A stretch of DNA of 64,000 nt from Gemmatimonadota bacterium (GTDB lineage Bacteria > Gemmatimonadota > Gemmatimonadetes > JACCXV01 > JAHWKZ01): contig JAWVZN010000002.1 in NCBI GenBank assembly GCA_033722155.1, positions 17,503 through 81,502 of the forward strand. Direction: 5' to 3'. The notes beneath the pieces were generated by a model. The model did no database searches. It saw nothing but the letters and a program-made list of their open reading frames with translations, and had not been told where the DNA came from. Both the position numbers and the translations under genes were made by a program. Of the stretch, positions 3,575 to 64,000 are shown piece after piece. The stretch's first letter is position 1. Each line of letters starts with the position of its first letter.

Positions 3575-4357
3575 CTACCCCTCCCCCCCGTACGGCTCGG
3601 GGTTCCGGGCCACGACCCCGATCGTGTGCGCCACCCAGCGGGAGGCGCGGGGGGCGAGAAGACGCTCGCGGACGGCCCGCCGAAGCCGGCGCACCGGCGC
3701 GATCGACGGGGGGCGCCGGGGCAGGGACGCGCCCGCCGCACCGGCGAGCTCGCGAATCAGGCGGTAGCCGAGGCTCGGGACCATCCAGTCCCCGTAGGTG
3801 TCCACGATCTCCCAGCCCGCCTCGCGGACCGTCCTCTCGAGCTCGGCGATGGTGAACTCCGTCTCCCACCCCGCGAACCACCGGTCGGCCCTCAGGGCCG
3901 CGCGCTTCAGGAGGGTCCAGGGATGGTAGGTCTGGGGCACGTCCGCGAGCAGCAGGCCGCCGGGCGCGGTCACCCGCCGGTTCTCGACGAGGAACGGAAG
4001 CGGGTTGCCGAAGTGCTCGAGGACCCCCTGGTGGAAGACGGCGTCGAAGACGCCGTCGGCGAACGGGAGATGGAAGCCGTCCCCGCCGACGATCCCCCGA
4101 CCGGTCAGGGCGGGTGCGGCGGCGGACACCAGCTCGAGCGCGGCCGGGCTGGAGTCGAGCGCCACCGCCCGATGTCCTCGGGCCGCGAGGGCGGCGGTGT
4201 CGCGTCCGGTGCCGGCGCCGATCTCGAGCACCCGCTTCTCCGGAGCCCCGAGCCAGGCGACCAGCGTCTCGAGGACCCGGGGGCTGGAGGGATACACCTC
4301 GTCGAGCTCCCCCTTCGAGGCCCAGAAGCGGGTCCAGGGATCGGCGGAACGCTCCAC
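3575..4357 (-). CDS. Class I SAM-dependent methyltransferase, 260 aa
   Basis: ORF 3575..4357 carries the Rossmann SAM motif VLEIGAGTGRDTAALAARGHRAVALD and …DAVFHQGVLEHF…. Confidence 0.8.
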   Translation of the reverse strand: MERSADPWTRFWASKGELDEVYPSSPRVLETLVAWLGAPEKRVLEIGAGTGRDTAALAARGHRAVALDSSPAALELVSAAAPALTGRGIVGGDGFHLPFADGVFDAVFHQGVLEHFGNPLPFLVENRRVTAPGGLLLADVPQTYHPWTLLKRAALRADRWFAGWETEFTIAELERTVREAGWEIVDTYGDWMVPSLGYRLIRELAGAAGASLPRRPPSIAPVRRLRRAVRERLLAPRASRWVAHTIGVVARNPEPYGGEG

Positions 4358-4362
4358 GGCCG

Positions 4363-5127
4363 CTACCGTCCGCTCGCCAGCCGCCGCGCCTCGAAATCGG
4401 GCATCCCGCTCTCCCGGATCGCCCGCTGGGCGCCCTCGAGGTCGTACTCGAGGCGGGCGAGCGAAAGGCGGGCGTGGTCGGGATCGAACGCGGCCACCGC
4501 GGCGCGCGGATCACGGTCGCGGGGTTGCCCCACCGCTCCGGGATTGACGAGGTACGGCCCCTCTCCGTCGAGGTCGACCTCCCCGTCGGCGGGAAGGCGC
4601 AGGGTCTCGACCCCCCCGCCGTCCCGCCTCCAACCGGATCGGACGTGGGTGTGGCCGAGAAAGCCCCATCGGGCGCCGCGCTCCGCCAGGGCGTCGAGCT
4701 CCACGCCCGCCGCGCGAGCCCCGGTCACGTACTCGAAGGCGTCGGGGTCGGCGAAGCCGCTGTGGGCGAGCCACACCCCGCTCTCCTCCCCTTCCACGGT
4801 GGCCGGCAGCGAGGCGAGCCACCCCATGGCGTCGTCGTCGAGCAGTTCCGCCTGGCGTTCGATCGCCGCCCGGGCATGGGGGTTGAACCACTCGCGGAGG
4901 GCCGGATCCACGACGGCGGCGTCGTGGTTGCCCCGCACCGTGGCCGCGCACGTTTCGCGGATCCGCTCCACGCACGCCGCCGGATCGCCGCCGTATCCCA
5001 CCACGTCGCCCATGCAGTAGATCGGCTCCGCCCCCCGCTCCTCGAGCCACGCCAGCGCGGCATCGAGCGCCTGGAGGTTGGCGTGGACGTCCGCGAGAAG
5101 GCCTAGCGGCCGGGTTCGAACTCCCAT
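4363..5127 (-). CDS. Metallophosphoesterase (calcineurin-like, YfcE/MJ0936-type), 254 aa
   Basis: Trimmed from ORF 4363..5343 to MGVRTRPLGLLADVHANLQALDAALAWL…CMGDVVGYGGDP…GNHD…GHTH, with the ATG at 5125-5127 confirmed. Confidence 0.75.
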   Translation of the reverse strand: MGVRTRPLGLLADVHANLQALDAALAWLEERGAEPIYCMGDVVGYGGDPAACVERIRETCAATVRGNHDAAVVDPALREWFNPHARAAIERQAELLDDDAMGWLASLPATVEGEESGVWLAHSGFADPDAFEYVTGARAAGVELDALAERGARWGFLGHTHVRSGWRRDGGGVETLRLPADGEVDLDGEGPYLVNPGAVGQPRDRDPRAAVAAFDPDHARLSLARLEYDLEGAQRAIRESGMPDFEARRLASGR

Positions 5128-5135
5128 GCCCCGGC

Positions 5136-5558
5136 TCAGGACGGGATCAGGTCGAGCCGGTGGGCGAGGGCGTCGAGGATCCCGTTGACGAAGCGGGGGG
5201 AGTCGGCGCCCCCGTAGCGCTTCGCGAGCGTGATCGCCTCGTCGATGGACACCTTGAAGGGGACGTCGTCGAAGTGGAGGAACTCGGCGGTGGCGATCCG
5301 CAGCACGTTGCGATCGATAATCGCCATGCGGTGGACCTCCCACCGCTCCGCGCTCTCCTCCAGGAGGGAATCGATCTCGCCGAGCCGGTCGGCGATCACG
5401 CCGATCAGCTCCTCGGCGAACTCGCGCACGTCGGCGTGGATGCTGCGCCGCTCGAAGAACCCCTCGGCCTCCTCGCGGAGCTCCGGCCGTCGGTCGCGCA
5501 TCTCCCAGGCGTACAGGATCTGGAGGACCCAGCGGCGGGCCTTGCTGCGTGCCTTCAC
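5136..5558 (-). CDS. nusB: Transcription antitermination factor NusB
   Basis: 140-aa ORF: MKARSKARRWVLQILYAWEM…; it overlaps ribH by an ATGA junction. Confidence 0.9.
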   Translation of the reverse strand: MKARSKARRWVLQILYAWEMRDRRPELREEAEGFFERRSIHADVREFAEELIGVIADRLGEIDSLLEESAERWEVHRMAIIDRNVLRIATAEFLHFDDVPFKVSIDEAITLAKRYGGADSPRFVNGILDALAHRLDLIPS

Positions 5559-6067
5559 GCGTACCCGAATCCCCGCACCGGGCCGGTGCTGCGCCCGCGG
5601 AGCCGGTCGAAGAGCGCGCTCTGGAGAAGGGCGGCGCGGGCGGCTTCGCCGCCCTTGTCGCCGCGGGCGGGATCCGCCCGTTCGACCGCCTGCTCCAGGG
5701 TGTCGGTGGTGAGCACGCCGAAGGCGAGGGGGACGTCGATCTCGTTGGCGAGCCTCTGCAGCGATCGGGTCACCGCGTGCGCGAGGACGTCGAAGTGGGG
5801 GGTCTCTCCCCGGACCACCGCTCCCAGGGCGACGATCGCGTCGAGGGGGTCGGGACCGGCGGCGAGCACCTCGCGGCAGGCGGGAGAGAGCTCGAAGGCG
5901 CCGGCGACGTGGTGCTCGACGACATCGCCGTCGTCGACCCCGGCCTCCACCAGCGCGGTCCGCGCCCCGGCGGCGAGCTGCGAGGTGACCTCGTCGTTGA
6001 AGCGGGCCACGACGAGCGCCACGCGGCGCCCGGTCCCGTCCACCTCGAGTTCCGGCGCCTCGCCCAT
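5555..6067 (-). CDS. ribH: 6,7-dimethyl-8-ribityllumazine synthase
   Basis: 170-aa ORF: …RRVALVVARFNDEVTSQL…HFDVLAHAVTRSLQRL…. Confidence 0.9.
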   Translation of the reverse strand: MGEAPELEVDGTGRRVALVVARFNDEVTSQLAAGARTALVEAGVDDGDVVEHHVAGAFELSPACREVLAAGPDPLDAIVALGAVVRGETPHFDVLAHAVTRSLQRLANEIDVPLAFGVLTTDTLEQAVERADPARGDKGGEAARAALLQSALFDRLRGRSTGPVRGFGYA

Positions 6068-6074
6068 GGGGCTC

Positions 6075-7312
<1,238 letters not shown>

Positions 7313-53952: not shown

Positions 53953-54153
53953 TTACTGCTCCCCGCCTCCGTTCCCCTCTCCGGGCGTTTCCGGGGCCTC
54001 GATCTGCACGTCCGCCTCGATGTCGGCCTCCTCTCCGCCCCCGGCCCCGTGGAACGCGCCGCTCATGTACAGGACCGCGGCCAGGATCAGGATGACGATG
54101 ATGATGAGGATGGCGTAGATCCCGCCCTGTCCGTCGGCCTGCTGGTTCGCCAT
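53953..54153 (-). CDS. Small membrane protein, 66 aa (single TM helix, acidic Gly-rich tail)
   Basis: ORF: MANQQADGQGGIYAILIIIVILILAAVLYMSGAF…. It has high GC3, a GGAG SD 7 nt upstream of the ATG, and a TAA stop. Confidence 0.4.
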   Translation of the reverse strand: MANQQADGQGGIYAILIIIVILILAAVLYMSGAFHGAGGGEEADIEADVQIEAPETPGEGNGGGEQ

Positions 54154-55654: not shown

Positions 55655-56047
55655 TCACGTCTCTCCCCCTCGCGAACGGGCGATCCGGACCGCCGCGACG
55701 AGCTCGCGCACCCCCGGCATGGGGTACTGGTAGCCCACCACCCGATACGCCCAGTTCGGCTCGTCGGTGAGGATCTGGGCTCCCAGGAACGTCCGGTGGA
55801 CCTCCAGCACCCGCTCCCACGGGATCCGGCGGTAGCGCCACAGGTACTTCACCCCGAGACCGTTTCGCCCCACCCGGATCGCCGGAGCCACGTAGGCGCC
55901 GAGCCCCAGGCTGAAGAACGACCACAGCAGGATGAACCAGCGGTGCACGAAGAGGTCGATCCAGAAGAGGTAGAGGAAGAAGACGGCGCTGACGAAGAAC
56001 CACGCCTTCAGCAGCCAGCGGACCCACGGGAAGGAGAACTCGATCAC
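55655..56047 (-). CDS. Bacterial PH-domain membrane protein, ~130 aa
   Basis: C-terminal tail of the otherwise-antisense ORF 55655..57967: (GTG)[51 protein letters not shown]… (2 TM) plus …YRRIPWERVLEVHRTFLGAQILTDE…. The GTG start overlaps the rnr TGA (GTGA). Confidence 0.6.
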   Translation of the reverse strand: MIEFSFPWVRWLLKAWFFVSAVFFLYLFWIDLFVHRWFILLWSFFSLGLGAYVAPAIRVGRNGLGVKYLWRYRRIPWERVLEVHRTFLGAQILTDEPNWAYRVVGYQYPMPGVRELVAAVRIARSRGGET

Positions 56048-58185
56048 CCCTCGCCCTTCTTCTCCACCAGCTCGAAGTCGATCTGCCGCAGGTCCTTGTT
56101 CACCCCCGCGACCCGCACCCGTACCGGATCGGCGAGGCGGAAGCGGCGCCCGGTGTTGCGTCCCAGGAGCGCGTACTTCTCCTCGTGGTACTCGTAGTAG
56201 TCGTCGTCGAGCTCGTGCATGTGGACGAGGCCCTCCACGAAGTACTGGTCCAGCCGGACGAAGAGGCCGAACGAGGTCACCCCGCTGACCACCCCGTCGA
56301 ACTCGTCGCCGACGTGGCGCTCCATGAACTGCACCTTCTTGAGGTCCACGGAGTCCCGCTCGGCCTCCACCGCCGCGCGCTCCTGCACCGAGGCGTGCTC
56401 GGTGGCGCGCTCGAGTCGGCTCTCCTCGCCCCCCCGCCGCTCGTCGTCCTTCCACCGCTCGCCCGACTCGATCCGCTTCAGCAGGCGGTGGACCAGGAGG
56501 TCCGGGTAGCGACGGATGGGCGAGGTGAAGTGGGTGTAGTGGTCGGCGGCCAGGCCGAAGTGGCCGATGTTCTCCACCTGGTAGCGGGCCTGCTTCATCG
56601 ATCGGAGGATCACCGTGTTGATCAGCTCCTCCTCGGGCTTGCCGCGCGCCTGCTCGATGACCGCCCCGAACGCCTTCGGGTCGAGCCCGCCGTCCGACTT
56701 CGGCAGCCGGTAGCCGAGCGCCGCCAGGAAGTCGCGGATCTGGTCGAGCTTTTCCGGGGCCGGCCGATCGTGAACCCGGTAGACGAAGGGAACCTGGAGG
56801 CGCGTGGCGTGGCGCGCCACGGTCTCGTTGGCCAGGAGCATGAACTCCTCGATCAGCCGCATCGAATCGAGCCGCACCGACTCCTGGATGTCGATCGGGA
56901 AGCCCTCCGCGTCCAGCTCGACGATCGCTTCGGGCAGGTCGAAGTCGAGACTCCCCCGCTTCACGCGCCGGCCGCGGAGCACCTTGGCGAGGCGGCGCAG
57001 CGTCTGGAGCTCCCACAACAGCTCCTCGTGCTCCGTCCTGGCGGGATCGCTCCGGATCAGCGACTGGGCCTCGTGGTAGGTGAGCCGGTGGCGGCTCCGG
57101 ATCACGGTCTCCGCGAACCGGTGCTTCCGCACCGCCCCTTCGCCGTCCAGGGTGAGGACGATCGAGTACGCCAGCCGGTCCTCGTTCGGGCGCAGCGAGC
57201 ACAGCTCGTTGGAGAGGCGCTCGGGCAGCATCGGGATGACGCGATCCACCAGATACGTGGAGGTGGCCCGCTCGTACGCCTCCTCGTCGATCACGTCGTG
57301 GGGCTCGACGTAGTGGCTGACGTCGGCGATGTGGACGCCGACCTCGAAGAGATCGTCCCCCTTGCGCTCGATCGAGAGGGCGTCGTCGAAGTCCTTCGCG
57401 TCGGTGGGGTCGATGGTGAACGTCGACCGGTCGCGCCAATCCTCGCGCCGCTCGAGCTCGCGGTCGAAGTCGGGCTCGATCGCCCCCGCGGCCCGGATCA
57501 CCTCCTCGGGGAACTCCTCGTCGAGACCGTGGGTCTTGACGATGGAGAGGATGTCCACCCCCGGGGCGTCGGGCGGCCCCAGCACCTCCACCACGCGCCC
57601 CTCGGGATTCTTGGTCCCGTCCCCCCAGTCGTCGATGGCGACGACGACCTTCTCCCCCTCCTCCGCCTGGGCGAGGTCTTCCTCGGCGACGTAGACGTCG
57701 AATCCGAGACGGGGATTGTCGGGAACCACGAAGCCGAACCGCTTGCCCCGCTGCAGCGCCCCGACCACCTCCTCGCGGGCCCGCTCGAGCACCCGGATCA
57801 CGCGCCCCTCGGGGTTGTCCTTGCCGCGATGGCGCTCGATCCGCGCCACCACCCGGTCCCGGTGGGTCGCGCTCCCCACCTTGTCCGGAGGCACGAAGAC
57901 GTCCGGCTTCTCCGTCTTCTTCTCGCGGACGACGAAGCCCGCGCCCTTGCGGGTCATGTCGAGCCACCCGACCACGAGGTTGATCTGCTCGGGGACTGCG
58001 TAGCGCTGCCCCTTGATCTTGTAGATCCGGCCGTCGTCCACGAGGCGGCCGAGGGATCCCTTCAGCTCCTCGTACCGCTCGTTCGGCAGGCCGAGGCCCC
58101 GGGCGATCTCCTTCCGCTTGAGCGGGCGCCGCGCCTCGTCCTCCAGATAGGCGACGATACGATCGTCGAGTTTCCGGTCGCTCAA
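56044..58185 (-). CDS. rnr: Ribonuclease R
   Basis: ORF 56044..58314 trimmed to TTG at 58183-58185: (M)[26 protein letters not shown]…. It has an RNB domain and a C-terminal S1 domain (…[15 protein letters not shown]…). The TTG overlaps the upstream TGA (TTGA). Confidence 0.9.
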
Positions 58186-59318: not shown

Positions 59319-59774
59319 TCACTCCGGGATCAAGCCCTTTTCCGCCAGCTCCTCGAGCGCCACGGACGACTTCTCCAAATGCTCCAATCCCATCCCCCGG
59401 AGCACGAACTCCGCCTTGGAGAACTGGACCGCGCCGTACTCCACCACCTGGATCCGGTTTCCCCACGGGTCGCGGAGATCGAGGCTCCCCTCGCTCGCCA
59501 GGATCTCGGCGCCCGTGTCCCTGGCGGCCCGCTCCACCGGCCCCAGCTCGTCCACGACGAGGCCGAAGTGCCGCCCCTGGTCCGGCGGCCCGCCCGGTCG
59601 CTCGGCGAGGGCGACGAACTGGTCGCCCAGGTCGAGGAACGCGTGTCCGGGCGACCGGCCCCTCAGCTCGTAGTCGAAGAGCTTTCCGTAGAAGGCGAGG
59701 GCCTCCTCGACGTCGTCCACCTCGAGTGCCACGTGGTTGATGCCGACCGCGCGGGCGCGGGTGTTTTCGCTCAT
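59319..59774 (-). CDS. VOC-family protein (glyoxalase / bleomycin-resistance / dioxygenase fold)
   Basis: 151-aa ORF: …GINHVALEVDDVEEALAFYGKLF…. Confidence 0.75.
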   Translation of the reverse strand: MSENTRARAVGINHVALEVDDVEEALAFYGKLFDYELRGRSPGHAFLDLGDQFVALAERPGGPPDQGRHFGLVVDELGPVERAARDTGAEILASEGSLDLRDPWGNRIQVVEYGAVQFSKAEFVLRGMGLEHLEKSSVALEELAEKGLIPE

Positions 59775-59932
59775 GGTGCGAGAGACGCTAGGAGGGGCGG
59801 GGGCGGGGCGCCGTAAGACGTCTTCGGGCGCGCTTTCGATCTCGAGGTCTCCACCCAGGGTCCGGATGGACCACCGGCGGGTCGACCCCCTCGAACGTGT
59901 TCGTCACGCCGGAACCGCCCGGCGAGGACGGA

Positions 59933-60008
59933 TGGTGGGCCGCCCAGGAATCGAACCTGGAACCTACGGATTAAGAGTCCGTTGCTCTGCCAGTTGAGCT
60001 AGCGGCCC
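59933..60008 (-). tRNA. tRNA-Lys (anticodon CTT), CCA encoded
   Basis: Minus-strand sequence GGGCCGCTAGCTCAACTGGCAGAGCAACGGACTCTTAATCCGTAGGTTCCAGGTTCGATTCCTGGGCGGCCCACCA. It folds as a cloverleaf with a 7-nt anticodon loop CT-CTT-AA and a T-loop TTCGATT. Confidence 0.85.
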
Positions 60009-60014
60009 GGAACT

Positions 60015-60090
60015 TGGGGTGGGCGAGGGGATTCGAACCCCCGACTCCCAGGACCACAACCTGGTGCTCTACCGCTGAGCTACGCCCACC
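60015..60090 (-). tRNA. tRNA-His (anticodon GTG), G-1 and CCA encoded
   Basis: Minus-strand sequence GGTGGGCGTAGCTCAGCGGTAGAGCACCAGGTTGTGGTCCTGGGAGTCGGGGGTTCGAATCCCCTCGCCCACCCCA. The anticodon loop is TT-GTG-GT, and an extra 5' G(-1) is paired with the discriminator C. Confidence 0.85.
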
Positions 60091-60104
60091 GTGCGGAGGG
60101 ACGA

Positions 60105-60133
60105 AATGTACCATCGTGCCGCCCCTCCATCAA
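60105..60133 (-). promoter_or_regulatory. Putative sigma70-type promoter for the tRNA-His/tRNA-Lys transcript (TTGATG-17-TACATT)
   Basis: The minus strand reads ccaTTGATGgaggggcggcacgatggTACATTtcgtccctccgcac directly upstream of tRNA-His, in the divergent intergenic region before the cyclase gene. Confidence 0.35.
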
Positions 60134-60157
60134 TGGAGCCGAGGGCCGGCCGGCTCT

Positions 60158-62146
60158 ATGTTGGGGCCCATGCGCCTCCCCGTGGATCGAGAGCGGCTCG
60201 CGGTCGGGCTGATCGCCGGCGTGGCGGCCGCCGCCGTGATCGCCGGTCTCGCCCGGACCGAGACCCTCCGGGGCCTGGAGTCCCGGACCGTGGACCTTCG
60301 GCTCCGGACCGAGCGGCTCGTGGAGGGCGGCGGGGTGGCCGACTCCTCGATCGTGATCGTGGACGTCGACAACGAATCCCTCCGCCGCTACCGCGACCGA
60401 CTCGGCCGGTGGCCGTGGCCTCGAAGCGCGTTCGCCGGCGTTCTCGACTTCCTCGCCGTGGGCGAGCCCCGGCTGGTGGCCTTCGACATCCTCTTCTCCG
60501 AGCCCGACCTCTCCCGCCCCGGCGCCGACTCGGTGTTCCAGCGCGCGGTGGCGGAGGGACCGCCCACGATCCACGCGGCGGTCTTCGACGAGCCGCTCGA
60601 CGTCCCCCGCTCGCCCGCGGGTGAGCCGCCGAGGGGGCTGCCGCGCTTCGCCCTCCCCCTTCCCGGCCCCCTTCCTCCCTGGCTGGAGCAGGGCGTTCCG
60701 GCGTTCGCGCTCGTCGACGCCCCGCTGCCGGGGCTGCTGGAGGAAGCCGCCGGGGTGGGCGCCATCAACCGCTCGACCGACCCCGAGGGCGAGGAGGGCC
60801 GAGAGGCCCTCCTCTTCCGCCACGCCGGACGGGTGTATCCCGGCTTCGCCCTGGCCGTCGCTGTCGGCGGCCGCGATGGATACTCCAGGCTCGAGCTCGC
60901 CGGGCGCCGGCTCCTGCTGGATGGAAGGCCGATTCCCCTGGAGGACGGCCGCTTCCGCCCCCACTGGCGAGGCTCCTACACCGATCGTCCCTTTCGCGTG
61001 GTGCCCGCCTGGCGGCTCCTGAACGCCTACGCCCGCCTGGCGCGAGGCGGGGACCCCGGCGTCGACCCGGAGAGCTTCGCGGGAGCCGACGTCCTGATCG
61101 GAAGCAGCGCCACCGGGGTGAGCGATCTCCTGTCGGGCGCGTTCGGCTCGCTGGAGCCCGGCGTCTACCTGCAGGCGACCCTCCTCGACACGCTACGCTC
61201 CGGGGACTATCTCCGCTCTCCGCCCGGGGGCGCGGCCCTGGCGGCGACCCTCCTGGTGATCCTCCTCGCCGGGCTCGGGAGCGCGATTCCCCGCGGCGTG
61301 GTCGCGGGCGGCGCCGTGGCGGCCGGGTTCCTCGTCGCGGTCGTGTCTACGGCCCTTGCGGCCTTTCTCGCCGGCGGATGGATCCTCCCGATGGCGGCCC
61401 CCGTATCGGGGGTGGTTCTCGCCTGGGGCGGCGCGATGGCCGGCAACTACCTGACCGAGGGGCGCCGCCACCGCGAGACCCGCGACGCCTTCGGAAAGTT
61501 CATCCCCCCGGACATCGTCCGCGAGATCTCCGCCGAGAGGGGAGGCGTCCACCACCGGATCGAGCGGAAGGAGCTCACGATCCTCTTCAGCGACATCCAG
61601 AACTTCACCACCCTCTCCGAGGACCTCTCACCCGAGCAGGTGGTCGAGACCCTGAACGAGTACCTGACGGAAATGGTCGAAGTCGTCTTCCGTCACCGCG
61701 GGACGCTCGACAAGTACGTCGGCGACGGGGTGATGGCGTTCTTCGGAGCCCCCCTGGAGGATCCCGACCACGCCCTCCACGCCTGCCGCGCGGCGCTCGC
61801 CATGCAGGAGAGGCTCGCCGAGTTGAACGCGCGATGGGAAGCGGAGGGACGTCCCTGCCTGGCGATCCGGGTCGGCATCCACACCGGCCCGGTCGTGATC
61901 GGCTTCATCGGCCACGAAAGGCGGCGCATGGACTACACGGTGATCGGAGACGCGGTGAACCTCGCGAGCCGGATCGAGGGGTTGAACAAGGAGTGCGGGA
62001 CCTCGATCCTCCTCTCCGAGTCGACCGCCGACCGGGTGGAGGAGGCCCTCTCCGTCGTTCCGATCGGCGAGCGAACGGTGCGCGGACGCCGGGGGGCGGT
62101 ACGGGTCTTCTCACTGGATTCCGCCACCGCCCCGGCATTATCTTGA
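60158..62146 (+). CDS. CHASE2-sensor adenylate/guanylate cyclase (class III)
   Basis: The listed ORF 60014..62146 starts inside the tRNA genes, so the start is trimmed to ATG 60158 ([31 protein letters not shown]…, N-terminal TM; alternative ATG 60170). It has a periplasmic CHASE2 region, TM helices and a cyclase domain (…[16 protein letters not shown]…[13 protein letters not shown]…). Confidence 0.85.
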
Positions 62147-62153
62147 GGGTCCG

Positions 62154-62954
62154 ATGAAGCGCCTGTCCAGCTTCCTCTTCCCGGCGGTCCTTTCCGTCCT
62201 TCTCGCCTCGCCGGCCGCGGCCCAGGAGGAGCTCTCGGCGGCCCTCGAGGGCCGCCGCGGCGCGATCCCCGACGATCCGCGAGCGTTCCAGGAGACGTGG
62301 CTCGTGCCTTCCGAGGGGAAGGCGGCCGCCGGACCCGAGCAGACCGAGTTCGGCGGCCGTGTCCGGGTGTATCAGGAGCGTCCACGGGAGCGGATCGAGA
62401 TCTTCGAGGTCGAGGGCGGGGAGTTGGGCGATCCCGTCGTGATCGTCGGCGACGGGACGCGGTACTGGCTCGTGACCCCGGTCGGGGCGAGCCCGCTTCT
62501 CGAGACCGAGCCGGCCGCCGACCCCTTCGTACGGAGGGTGCTCGCGGGTCCCGCCGGGGACGCCGAGCCGCACCGGATCGTCCCGGCGGAAGGCGGAATC
62601 GCCGCCGTGGTCCTCCGCCACTCCCTCGCCGGGGAGTTCGACGCCGACGAGGCGTTCGCGCTCGAGCTCCCCCGCGGCGGATCCGGCGTTCTGGAGACGA
62701 CGGTCTCGAGCTTCAGCGCCGCCGGAGACCCCGAGGTGGTGGCCTCGGCGGGCGCGCGCGGGGTCGACCGGGTCCGCACCGCCAGCGGAACGATCGCCGT
62801 CACCCCCGACCCCGGCGCGGTGGCGTGGATGGAGGAGGAGCTCGCCGTTCCCACGCTCGAGCTGGAGCGCTTCCGTCGAGAGGCACGCCTGGCGCCCTAC
62901 GACGTGCTCCCTTCCGTGGAGCAGGCGCCGTCCGACCCGGAGGCGGGCCGATGA
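62154..62954 (+). CDS. Secreted hypothetical protein, 266 aa (signal peptide; possibly a LolA/RseB-like fold)
   Basis: ORF: MKRLSSFLFPAVLSVLLASPAAAQEE…; it lies 8 nt downstream of the cyclase stop. Confidence 0.55.
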   Translation: MKRLSSFLFPAVLSVLLASPAAAQEELSAALEGRRGAIPDDPRAFQETWLVPSEGKAAAGPEQTEFGGRVRVYQERPRERIEIFEVEGGELGDPVVIVGDGTRYWLVTPVGASPLLETEPAADPFVRRVLAGPAGDAEPHRIVPAEGGIAAVVLRHSLAGEFDADEAFALELPRGGSGVLETTVSSFSAAGDPEVVASAGARGVDRVRTASGTIAVTPDPGAVAWMEEELAVPTLELERFRREARLAPYDVLPSVEQAPSDPEAGR

Positions 62955-63835
62955 TCGGACGGGGCGTCCGCGCCCTCGTGACGGCCCTGCTCGTCCTGCT
63001 CCTGGCGGCCCCCGCGGCCCGCGCGCAGATCTTCGGCGAGATCCAGGAGAAGGTGCAGGACGCCGCCGAGAAGGTGCAGCAGGCCCGGAAGTACGGCGCC
63101 GCGGTGGTGCCGATCAGCACCGGGCAGGAGATCGAGATCGGCCGCGGGATCGCGGCCACCCTCGCCGGAGCCTACGGCGTCGACCGCGACCCCGAGCTCA
63201 CCCGCTACGTCAACCTGGTCGGCTCCGTGGTCGCGTCGGTCGATCCCCGGCCCGGCATCGCCTACCGCTTCGCCGTCCTCGACACCGACGCCGTGAACGC
63301 CTTCGCCGCCCCCGGCGGGTACGTCTTCGTGACCCGCGGAGCCCTCGCCGCGATGGAGGACGAGGCGACGCTGGCCGCGGTGCTCGCCCACGAAGTGGGC
63401 CACGTCGACGCCCGCGACGTGGTGGAGGAGATCCAGAGCCGGGCCCGGACCGCGCTGGGCATCGAGGAGGCCGCCGAGGCGGTGGACGTGACCGGCGAGG
63501 AGTACCTCACCAAGGCGGTGGAGACGGGCGCCACCGCGCTCTTCATGGGCCTCTCCCGGGAGGACGAGCTGGAGGCCGACCGCTTCGCGGTCGAGCGGCT
63601 CGCCGCCGTCGGCTACGATCCGGACGGCCTGCTCCGATTCCTCGAGGCGCTGGAGGAGCGCTCCGGCGATGAGGACGTCTCGCTGCTCGAGAAGACCCAC
63701 CCGGACGCCTCCGACCGGATCGACGAGGCGGAGGAGGTGGTCGAGGATCTGCCGGACGAGCGTCGGGAGGGCGTGGTGGCCGAGGCCCGGTTCCGCCGCG
63801 CCCTGGAGGAAGACACCGCGACCCCGGGTTTCTAG
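62951..63835 (+). CDS. M48-family zinc metallopeptidase (signal peptide, HEXXH), 294 aa
   Basis: C-terminal part of ORF 62297..63835: MIGRGVRALVTALLVLLLAAPAARAQ…AVNAFAAPGGYVFVTRGAL…LAHEVGHV…. The ATG overlaps the upstream TGA (ATGA). Confidence 0.8.
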   Translation: MIGRGVRALVTALLVLLLAAPAARAQIFGEIQEKVQDAAEKVQQARKYGAAVVPISTGQEIEIGRGIAATLAGAYGVDRDPELTRYVNLVGSVVASVDPRPGIAYRFAVLDTDAVNAFAAPGGYVFVTRGALAAMEDEATLAAVLAHEVGHVDARDVVEEIQSRARTALGIEEAAEAVDVTGEEYLTKAVETGATALFMGLSREDELEADRFAVERLAAVGYDPDGLLRFLEALEERSGDEDVSLLEKTHPDASDRIDEAEEVVEDLPDERREGVVAEARFRRALEEDTATPGF

Positions 63836-64000
63836 CGCGATCGGGGCTCGCCGGGCTCCCGCACCGCTCCCACCTCCATATCGCATTCGGGGAGATCCGC
63901 CAGCAGATCCATCCCGTACGCCGACGAGGGCGTCACCGCTCCCGCCGGCGGATCCTCGAGGAGGCGCCGCACGCACTCCACGGAGGAGACGGCGGTGAAC
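63832..64000 (-). CDS. Possible 3' end of an unidentified minus-strand gene entering from the right edge
   Basis: Minus frame …FTAVSSVECVRRLLEDPPAGAVTPSSAYGMDLLADLPECDMEVGAVREPGEPRSR* has very high GC3 and ends in a TAG overlapping the M48 stop (CTAG). No function is assignable. Confidence 0.3.
   Translation of the reverse strand, partial: FTAVSSVECVRRLLEDPPAGAVTPSSAYGMDLLADLPECDMEVGAVREPGEPRSR

Follow-up and report, generated by a model that had tools for sequence, protein, structure and literature searches.

A secreted protein of an undescribed family is linked and naturally fused to CHASE2 cyclases and adjoins an M48 metallopeptidase gene

The analysed stretch, hereafter the window, comprises 64,000 nucleotides (nt) from an uncultured Gemmatimonadota bacterium (GenBank assembly GCA_033722155.1, contig JAWVZN010000002.1, positions 17,503 to 81,502 of the forward strand). 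Three consecutive plus-strand genes near its end encode a receptor cyclase with a CHASE2 domain (gene 1, 60158–62146), a secreted protein that belongs to a small family without a Pfam model (gene 2, here named G2, 62154–62954) and a secreted zinc metallopeptidase of family M48 (gene 3, 62951–63835). The locus combines a receptor cyclase, an accessory partner in the periplasm and an associated protease, and is built around an undescribed protein family. In every context that we examined, G2 either adjoins a CHASE2 cyclase or is fused to one, and it is well supported that G2 serves one clade of CHASE2 adenylate cyclases as a dedicated partner in the periplasm. For the peptidase, the strongest statement that the data allow is that M48 is co-translated with G2 in the Gemmatimonadota-type and fusion-type lineages.

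Conserved linkage and natural fusions of G2 with CHASE2 cyclases

The genomic contexts of G2 were collected by contig look-ups and by scanning a single genome for each GTDB species, and the loci were scored by tblastn; all source organisms are uncultured, and the data come from metagenome-assembled genomes (MAGs) or metagenomes. The species scan returned 22 loci, 21 of them titled Gemmatimonadota, Gemmatimonadetes or Gemmatimonadales and one titled "uncultured bacterium". The cyclase, G2 and M48 genes lie on one strand in all 30 non-redundant loci, save where contig ends cut the locus, and no counter-example was found, so that the conservation across genomes on which the initial annotation had made its three-gene unit depend is borne out. 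A fourth gene, which encodes a channel, is frequently part of the cluster. The order cyclase, channel, G2, M48 is present in 24 of the 30 loci, and two loci (the window and L034) have the order cyclase, G2, M48. One contig, seen as both L001 and L002, carries the channel gene after M48, and in L024 the channel gene follows M48 with an nth gene in between. Contig ends truncate all the other loci, which fit the orders above. The 4-nt overlap between G2 and M48 recurs in most related loci, and even in a more distant tier (L036 and L037), where identity is 39–40% for G2 and 50–54% for M48, the four-gene order is unchanged.

The position of the channel gene thus varies among three places, namely between the cyclase and G2, after M48, or after the intervening nth gene, and the flanks of the trio vary widely from locus to locus. 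The cyclase and channel genes are separated by a gap of about 2.2 kb in L010, L012, L021, L023 and L030 and of about 1.8 kb in L014. In L010 this gap holds an opposite-strand gene for 699 residues (4163–6262, minus strand), and the cluster stays together around it. By eye, the 699-residue product resembles a secreted peptidase with C-terminal repeats. Linkage that is kept through such rearrangement and divergence points to selection rather than inertia.

The channel of the related loci is of the MscS type with a cyclic nucleotide monophosphate (cNMP)-binding domain and occurs in 27 of the 30; as the fourth gene of these clusters, it has the MS_channel_2nd, MS_channel_3rd and cNMP_binding architecture of the cyclic nucleotide-gated channels of bacteria (bCNG channels). 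In the window, a tblastn search with the channel over the whole 64 kb gave nothing at E<1e-5, and the cNMP domain alone gave a best E value of 0.48. Two loci with 62% G2 identity resemble the window in this respect. In L034, one of the closer relatives whose context was usable, the cyclase, G2 and M48 genes are followed by a convergent gene, with no channel, and in L035 the cyclase runs directly into G2 before the contig ends. A recent deletion artefact as the origin of the channel-free form in the window was rejected, as L034 and L035 also run from the cyclase straight into G2. Because the channel is absent from both the window and L034, the invariant core of the cluster is cyclase, G2 and M48. 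Where the channel gene directly follows the gene of a receptor adenylate cyclase, the channel is the obvious reader of cyclic AMP (cAMP) in the module.

The closest association between G2 and the cyclase is covalent. An exhaustive HMMER search with a G2 profile among 1.84 billion representative proteins gave only 45 matches at E<=1e-3, and at least seven of them are natural fusions in which CHASE2, the cyclase domain, a hydrophobic segment and a C-terminal G2 follow one another in a single protein. Four fusions are full-length (P0219, P0225, P0226 and P0233; 909–949 residues), and three are fragments (P0230, P0218 and P0229). For P0230 and the four full-length proteins, Pfam recognises CHASE2 and, after it, Guanylate_cyc; for P0218 and P0229 it recognises the cyclase domain only. 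In all seven, arginine-rich residues precede the hydrophobic segment and A-Q follows it, the junction at which stand-alone G2 and also M48 are predicted to be cleaved by signal peptidase. Positive charges before the segment and A-Q after it fit export of G2 into the compartment of the CHASE2 domain, either tethered or released by signal peptidase, and judging from this junction the fusions might be processed like a polyprotein rather than stay tethered. Directly after the fusion gene P0226 comes an M48 gene that overlaps it by 4 nt, and after P0225 an overlapping gene that is cut by the contig end.

A third form of the protein is a G2-like family of about 310 residues with a member from Candidatus Manganitrophaceae (Nitrospirota). 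A profile search with fused and Nitrospirota-type G2 gave four matches, and cluster look-up returned one taxon, Ca. Manganitrophaceae. A metagenome scan with a three-sequence alignment returned a single locus (L038), the sole one recovered for this family, in which the gene directly follows a CHASE2 cyclase gene and no M48 gene lies nearby.

We consider it very improbable that the adjacency is meaningless, that is, synteny inherited within a narrow clade, with the fusions being artefacts of gene calling or assembly. The exclusive use of MAGs and metagenomes leaves room for such an origin, some recurring flank genes (HEAT-PPIase, YkuD and PALP) can be taken as residual synteny, and as the cyclase stop and the G2 start lie only 1–13 nt apart, one sequencing error could mimic a fusion. 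However, the fusions, at least four full-length and three partial, are cluster representatives that are less than 50% identical to one another and derive from JGI, ENA and Logan, and therefore they do not reflect a single assembly error. The trio also survives several rearrangements and an insertion while its flanks vary widely, and the cyclase–G2 pairing recurs in the family with the Nitrospirota member.

Several genes recur on the flanks of the related loci. Genes for YkuD-type L,D-transpeptidases with a PG_binding_1 domain are found near M48, directly after it in L032 (7090–8424) and one gene past it in L003 (8650–9975) and L007 (9825–12425). A gene that combines HEAT_2 and Pro_isomerase domains (HEAT-peptidyl-prolyl isomerase, the HEAT-PPIase above) recurs in L001, L005 and L007. 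These recurrences could represent residual synteny or a wider envelope theme. Additionally, a small same-strand gene for 104–150 residues often lies just 5' of the cyclase gene in the relatives. In L007 (2083–2397) it shares 4 nt with the cyclase start, on the P0225 contig (3363–3692) it stops 2 nt short of the fusion gene, and in L005 (1915–2367) it encodes a DUF6982 protein. This gene may be a further member of the module; the window lacks it and has tRNA genes in its place.

Predicted properties of G2, the cyclase and the M48 peptidase

The initial annotation had described the middle gene product as a 266-residue signal-peptide protein of unknown fold, and its length and predicted signal peptide are borne out. 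G2 has 266 residues and a predicted Sec signal peptide (residues 1–23; 62154–62222, plus strand), with cleavage expected from the sequence and the alignment after AAA and before QEE. The A-Q junction is kept in the homologs as well as in the fusions, and the protein contains no cysteine and hence no lipobox. It has no Pfam or NCBIfam match. Among 40 members of the G2 family, Pfam searches at E values up to 10 gave no match to LolA, MucB_RseB, LolA_like or similar families; scattered weak matches to DUF1775 in the same searches were judged to be noise. None of 90 close homologs (at least 51% identity) carries a Pfam domain, and all those named by organism are Gemmatimonadota MAGs.

An AlphaFold2 model of G2 built from a 40-sequence alignment has a mean predicted local distance difference test score (pLDDT) of 82.5 and a predicted template modelling score (pTM) of 0.72. 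The N-terminal domain (residues ~24–167; 62223–62654, plus strand) consists of one helix and an antiparallel sheet and is modelled with a pLDDT of ~95. Its best structural matches are lipid and lipoprotein binders of the LolA superfamily, including RseB and MucB, which weakly suggests a remote likeness of the modelled domain to LolA, LolB and RseB. The question raised in the initial annotation, whether structure prediction would reveal a LolA- or RseB-like fold, is thus answered in part: the N-domain bears a remote structural resemblance, and at the sequence level none of these families was matched at E values up to 10.

Some of the most conserved residues of G2 follow this domain. A conserved segment predicted to be disordered (residues 175–204; 62676–62765, plus strand; pLDDT <50 for residues 175–201) ends in the motif S-A-G-A-R-G-V (residues 198–204; 62745–62765, plus strand), which is invariant in the alignment. 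F187, A199, G200, R202, G203 and V204 are invariant in the family alignment. An invariant motif within a segment predicted to be disordered is typical of a partner-binding or cleavage element. The C-terminal module (residues 205–253; 62766–62912, plus strand) carries the signatures PDxxAVxWME and LExFxREaRLaPYdxLP, and in the model residues 206–243 form a small hairpin and two helices. The combined signature [ST]AGARG[VL] .. D..AV..ME .. E.F.RE..L is common to stand-alone, fused and Nitrospirota-type G2. In a predicted fold of the natural fusion P0219, the G2 N-domain and the cyclase are modelled confidently, the SAGARGV segment has a pLDDT <50 and the overall pTM is 0.47. This model, in which the alignment over the cyclase part is shallow, neither supports nor excludes docking of CHASE2 onto G2.

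An alternative explanation is a released ligand. M48 would then free from G2 a peptide that contains or adjoins SAGARGV and that acts as the CHASE2 agonist in an autocrine or density-dependent manner. An invariant motif in a flexible, protease-accessible segment would suit such a precursor, as would the translational coupling of G2 and M48, and the sole CHASE2 cue so far known is of protein nature. We nevertheless regard this explanation as quite improbable. The Nitrospirota-type locus keeps the motif where no M48 gene adjoins, and thus SAGARGV cannot be only an M48 site. In addition, the fusions tether G2, which is better suited to a co-receptor than to a diffusible ligand precursor unless signal peptidase cuts the A-Q junction.

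Gene 1 encodes a protein of 662 residues that starts at an ATG at 60158; a second ATG is present at 60170. Pfam matches to CHASE2 (PF05226; 140.3 bits against a cut-off of 26.3, E value 1.1e-40, residues 25–373) and to Guanylate_cyc (PF00211; 103.7 bits against a cut-off of 21.9, E value 1.2e-29, residues 471–653) are well above the cut-offs and substantiate the CHASE2 sensor cyclase named in the initial annotation. The CHASE2 domain (60230–61276, plus strand) is predicted to lie in the periplasm between the first and second transmembrane segments. A hydropathy scan places the first segment at residues 14–32 (60197–60253, plus strand) and three hydrophobic segments after CHASE2 at residues 359–377, 386–404 and 409–429 (61232–61444, plus strand), the last of which is marginal with a hand-computed Kyte-Doolittle value of ~1.56. 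One transmembrane segment before CHASE2 and three after it place CHASE2 in the periplasm and the cyclase domain in the cytoplasm, so that the predicted topology comprises an N-terminal transmembrane segment, a periplasmic CHASE2 domain, three transmembrane segments and a cytoplasmic cyclase.

The class III catalytic domain (residues 471–653; 61568–62116, plus strand) was delimited by Pfam and by alignment to CyaB, and its closest solved relatives are CyaB (3r5g, 5e-35) and CyaC (1wc0). Aligned with CyaB 3r5g, the catalytic motifs are intact: FSDI (477–480), DKYVGDG (518–524) and a 16-residue motif (592–607). They contain what we take to be the two metal-binding aspartates, the lysine/threonine specificity pair, the asparagine and the arginine. 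An aspartate pair with lysine/threonine and asparagine/arginine is the pattern of class IIIb adenylate cyclases. By its sequence, gene 1 meets the description of a CHASE2-domain class III receptor adenylate cyclase and is a predicted producer of cAMP.

Gene 3 encodes 294 residues with a Pfam match to Peptidase_M48 (PF01435; 100.9 bits against a cut-off of 20.3, E value 9.9e-29), a predicted Sec signal peptide (residues 1–25, cleavage after ARA and before QIF) and a zinc-binding and catalytic HEVGH motif (residues 147–151; 63389–63403, plus strand), in agreement with the secreted or periplasmic M48 peptidase with an HEXXH motif of the initial annotation. Its sequence is the same as that of MDX1622559.1 ("M48 family metalloprotease [Gemmatimonadota bacterium]"), which comes from a 95-kb contig of a Gemmatimonadota MAG, and its closest solved relatives are the Geobacter M48 peptidase 3c37 (1e-25) and BepA. 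A segment REDELEAD (residues 203–210; 63557–63580, plus strand) aligns with NEQEAD in BepA, where the zinc-binding glutamate is probably located. The sequence HPDASDR (residues 250–256; 63698–63718, plus strand) matches by regular expression the HPx4R motif of the active-site plug. With the pattern HExxH-x(30,140)-HPx4R taken from PMC7950410, we found the motif pair in the window protein (residues 147–256) and in all 28 complete orthologs. The HP motif of BepA serves as an autoinhibitory active-site plug, which has to move before proteolysis can occur (PMC7950410). A plug motif in M48 speaks for a regulated rather than a constitutive protease.

The window peptidase shares with BepA, LoiP, YcaL and 3c37 the HExxH motif, the glutamate-containing segment, the HPx4R plug and export. 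It is not BepA itself, which has ~487 residues and tetratricopeptide repeats (TPR); the NCBIfam BepA model scored 93.5 bits against a cut-off of 570 and covered only profile positions 36–261 of 483, with no TPR match. Assignment as a LoiP/YcaL lipoprotein was likewise rejected, as the protein has no cysteine and so no lipobox, and LoiP scored 48.8 bits against a cut-off of 365. In the literature searched, an M48 gene coupled to a G2 gene at a CHASE2 cyclase locus is not described as a context of BepA/LoiP-type enzymes.

These relationships bear on a second explanation, in which G2 and M48 form an envelope-maintenance pair, consisting of a BepA/LoiP-like protease and a LolA-like cargo adaptor, that is co-expressed with the cAMP pathway or lies downstream of it and gives it no input. 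The closest characterised relatives of M48, BepA and LoiP, are outer-membrane quality-control proteases, and the top fold matches of G2 are lipoprotein carriers. The YkuD genes that often follow M48 and the MscS-type channel within the operon would add an envelope or osmotic theme. In Sinorhizobium meliloti, moreover, the periplasmic proteins SMc02177 (with a FecR domain) and SMc02178, encoded beside the CHASE2 cyclase gene cyaD1, are outputs rather than inputs and are dispensable for perception. A maintenance pair, however, would be expected to be widespread and independent of any receptor, whereas the G2 family counts 45 members and, in every context examined, sits next to a CHASE2 cyclase or is fused to one, and a covalent G2–cyclase fusion is hard to square with a freely diffusing chaperone. 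We therefore consider this explanation unlikely, if the weightiest of the alternatives.

Layout of the transcription unit and its flanks

The open reading frame (ORF) list and direct reading of the sequence confirm three closely linked plus-strand genes, as first annotated, with one correction. Genes 1 and 2 are separated by 7 nt (GGGTCCG, 62147–62153, plus strand) rather than 8 nt. A Shine-Dalgarno-like GAGG motif ahead of G2 lies across the stop codon of gene 1, and GAGG or GGAGG is found a few bases 5' of both downstream starts. The ATGA start/stop overlap between G2 and M48 (62951–62954, plus strand) is exact, implying from the sequence that the two genes are translationally coupled.

Upstream, the unit is bounded by two minus-strand tRNA genes, tRNA-Lys(CTT) at 59933–60008 and tRNA-His(GTG) at 60015–60089, which are spaced by 6 nt and divergent from the cyclase gene; tRNA-His lies 68 nt from the start of that gene. 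A long mechanical ORF from 60014 was rejected as the true start of gene 1 because it reads across tRNA-His on the other strand. With so short a distance to tRNA-His, the promoter of the operon must lie within the tRNA region or close to it. On the downstream side, the stop codon of a convergent minus-strand gene (63833–64000 in the window) overlaps that of M48 in a shared CTAG, leaving no space for a terminator in between. The last 236 residues that this convergent gene encodes, taken from an identical Logan contig (L031, 2639–3349), have no Pfam match. With the tRNA genes upstream and the convergent gene downstream, the unit comprises exactly three genes in this genome. A promoter and terminator scan of 59700–64000, which is uninformative for this phylum, detected no site resembling a promoter; a single terminator-like site lay outside the operon, a number no higher than in shuffled sequence.

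Farther upstream, the minus strand encodes a glyoxalase, Era, RNase R and a beta-eliminating lyase, which are unrelated to the module. Among these housekeeping genes lies a small hydrophobic ORF (53953–54153, minus strand) for 66 residues with one transmembrane segment and an acidic tail. A long minus-strand frame (55655–57967) that ends between the genes for RNase R and the beta-eliminating lyase has a tryptophan- and phenylalanine-rich membrane portion at its C terminus (55655–56030, minus strand).

A possible periplasm-facing signalling module

CHASE2 has remained an orphan sensor domain ever since its definition from sequence. Separate periplasmic binding proteins act as co-receptors of sensor kinases in LuxP-LuxQ and TorT-TorS. 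As in these systems, a soluble periplasmic partner encoded beside a membrane sensor could deliver a signal to the periplasmic domain of the receptor; unlike them, G2 is LolA-like rather than a type I or type II periplasmic binding protein, the receptor is a cyclase rather than a histidine kinase, and the known systems have no coupled protease.

Our favoured reading, which falls slightly short of an even chance in our estimation, is that G2 acts on the CHASE2 cyclase as a co-receptor or regulator and is processed by M48, the three proteins forming one periplasm-facing signalling module. G2 would be exported to the periplasm and act there as a dedicated co-receptor or regulator, binding CHASE2 physically. 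Its LolA-like half-barrel would be the likely site for a hydrophobic, envelope-derived cue, and the flexible SAGARGV segment and the C-terminal module would be the likely elements of interaction or processing. M48 would probably be held off by its own active-site plug, like BepA, until it cuts either G2 or the G2–CHASE2 complex, and this cut may switch the cyclase or reset it. In most relatives, the resulting cAMP would be read by the cNMP-binding MscS-type channel of the same operon, which it would gate; in this genome, that reader is absent from the locus. The initial annotation had proposed a sensor gated by a partner or by proteolysis. Linkage in 30 of 30 loci and the natural fusions support the partner, and gating by proteolysis is what we infer from the coupled, plug-bearing peptidase. 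The sequences establish the order of the genes, the identities of the domains, the conservation of the trio, the make-up of the fusions and the narrow distribution of the family, whereas the binding of G2 to CHASE2, its cleavage by M48, the kind of cue and the sign of the regulation are inferred.

A more far-reaching version strikes us as possible but rather doubtful. G2 would then be the first cognate periplasmic partner for any CHASE2 domain, a co-receptor of LolA fold with a conserved flexible segment that a plug-regulated M48 peptidase cuts to switch the cyclase, and together with the bCNG channel of most relatives the components would make up a self-contained receptor–cAMP–channel pathway. 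If true, such a pathway would be formally like eukaryotic sensory transduction and would provide the first physiological context for bCNG channels.

The anti-sigma pathway of RseB/MucB, RseA/MucA, DegS and RseP resembles the locus in fold and logic only. The protease at our locus belongs to M48 rather than S1C or M50, the output would be cAMP, and G2 has no sequence similarity to MucB_RseB. No gene for an anti-sigma factor or an extracytoplasmic function (ECF) sigma factor was found among the called neighbours in any locus or in the flanks of the window, and the locus has no gene for DegS or RseP. The analogy that the initial annotation drew to anti-sigma/RseP or BepA logic thus reaches as far as a remote resemblance in fold, the proposed logic and the BepA-like catalytic core, and not to the regulatory genes or to the identity of the peptidase, which by score is not BepA.

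The nearest known counterpart of the receptor is found in S. meliloti. There, the CHASE2 cyclases CyaD1, CyaD2 and CyaK are reported to be activated by a plant protein cue through the outer-membrane accessory protein NsrA. The view that CHASE2 ligands are unknown, from which the initial annotation started, therefore holds for this orphan domain in general, but not for this one rhizobium. The two systems have in common receptors that combine CHASE2 with a class III cyclase, and in S. meliloti an accessory envelope protein, a protein cue and genes for extracytoplasmic proteins beside cyaD1 are present. By analogy, the window cyclase might likewise depend on an accessory protein. The S. meliloti system differs in having no M48 peptidase and another type of partner, its output is the CRP-type regulator Clr rather than a channel, and no cyclase fusion is reported for it.

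Within the literature searched, of which coverage was incomplete so that absence of evidence is all that it conveys, we found no link of CHASE2 to M48 peptidases, to LolA-like proteins or to MscS/bCNG channels, and no operon link between a bCNG channel and a CHASE2 cyclase. According to a 2026 review, it is not understood what bCNG channels do physiologically or what part cyclic nucleotides have in gating them, and structural data are lacking. The loci of the relatives, in which a cNMP-binding MscS-type channel gene directly follows a receptor cyclase gene, offer a natural system for asking what these channels are for, even though the window itself carries no channel gene. For M48 peptidases, the locus adds a possible role in signalling to that in outer-membrane quality control. 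In G2, the orphan CHASE2 domain gains its first strong candidate for a partner, one that is concrete and experimentally tractable.

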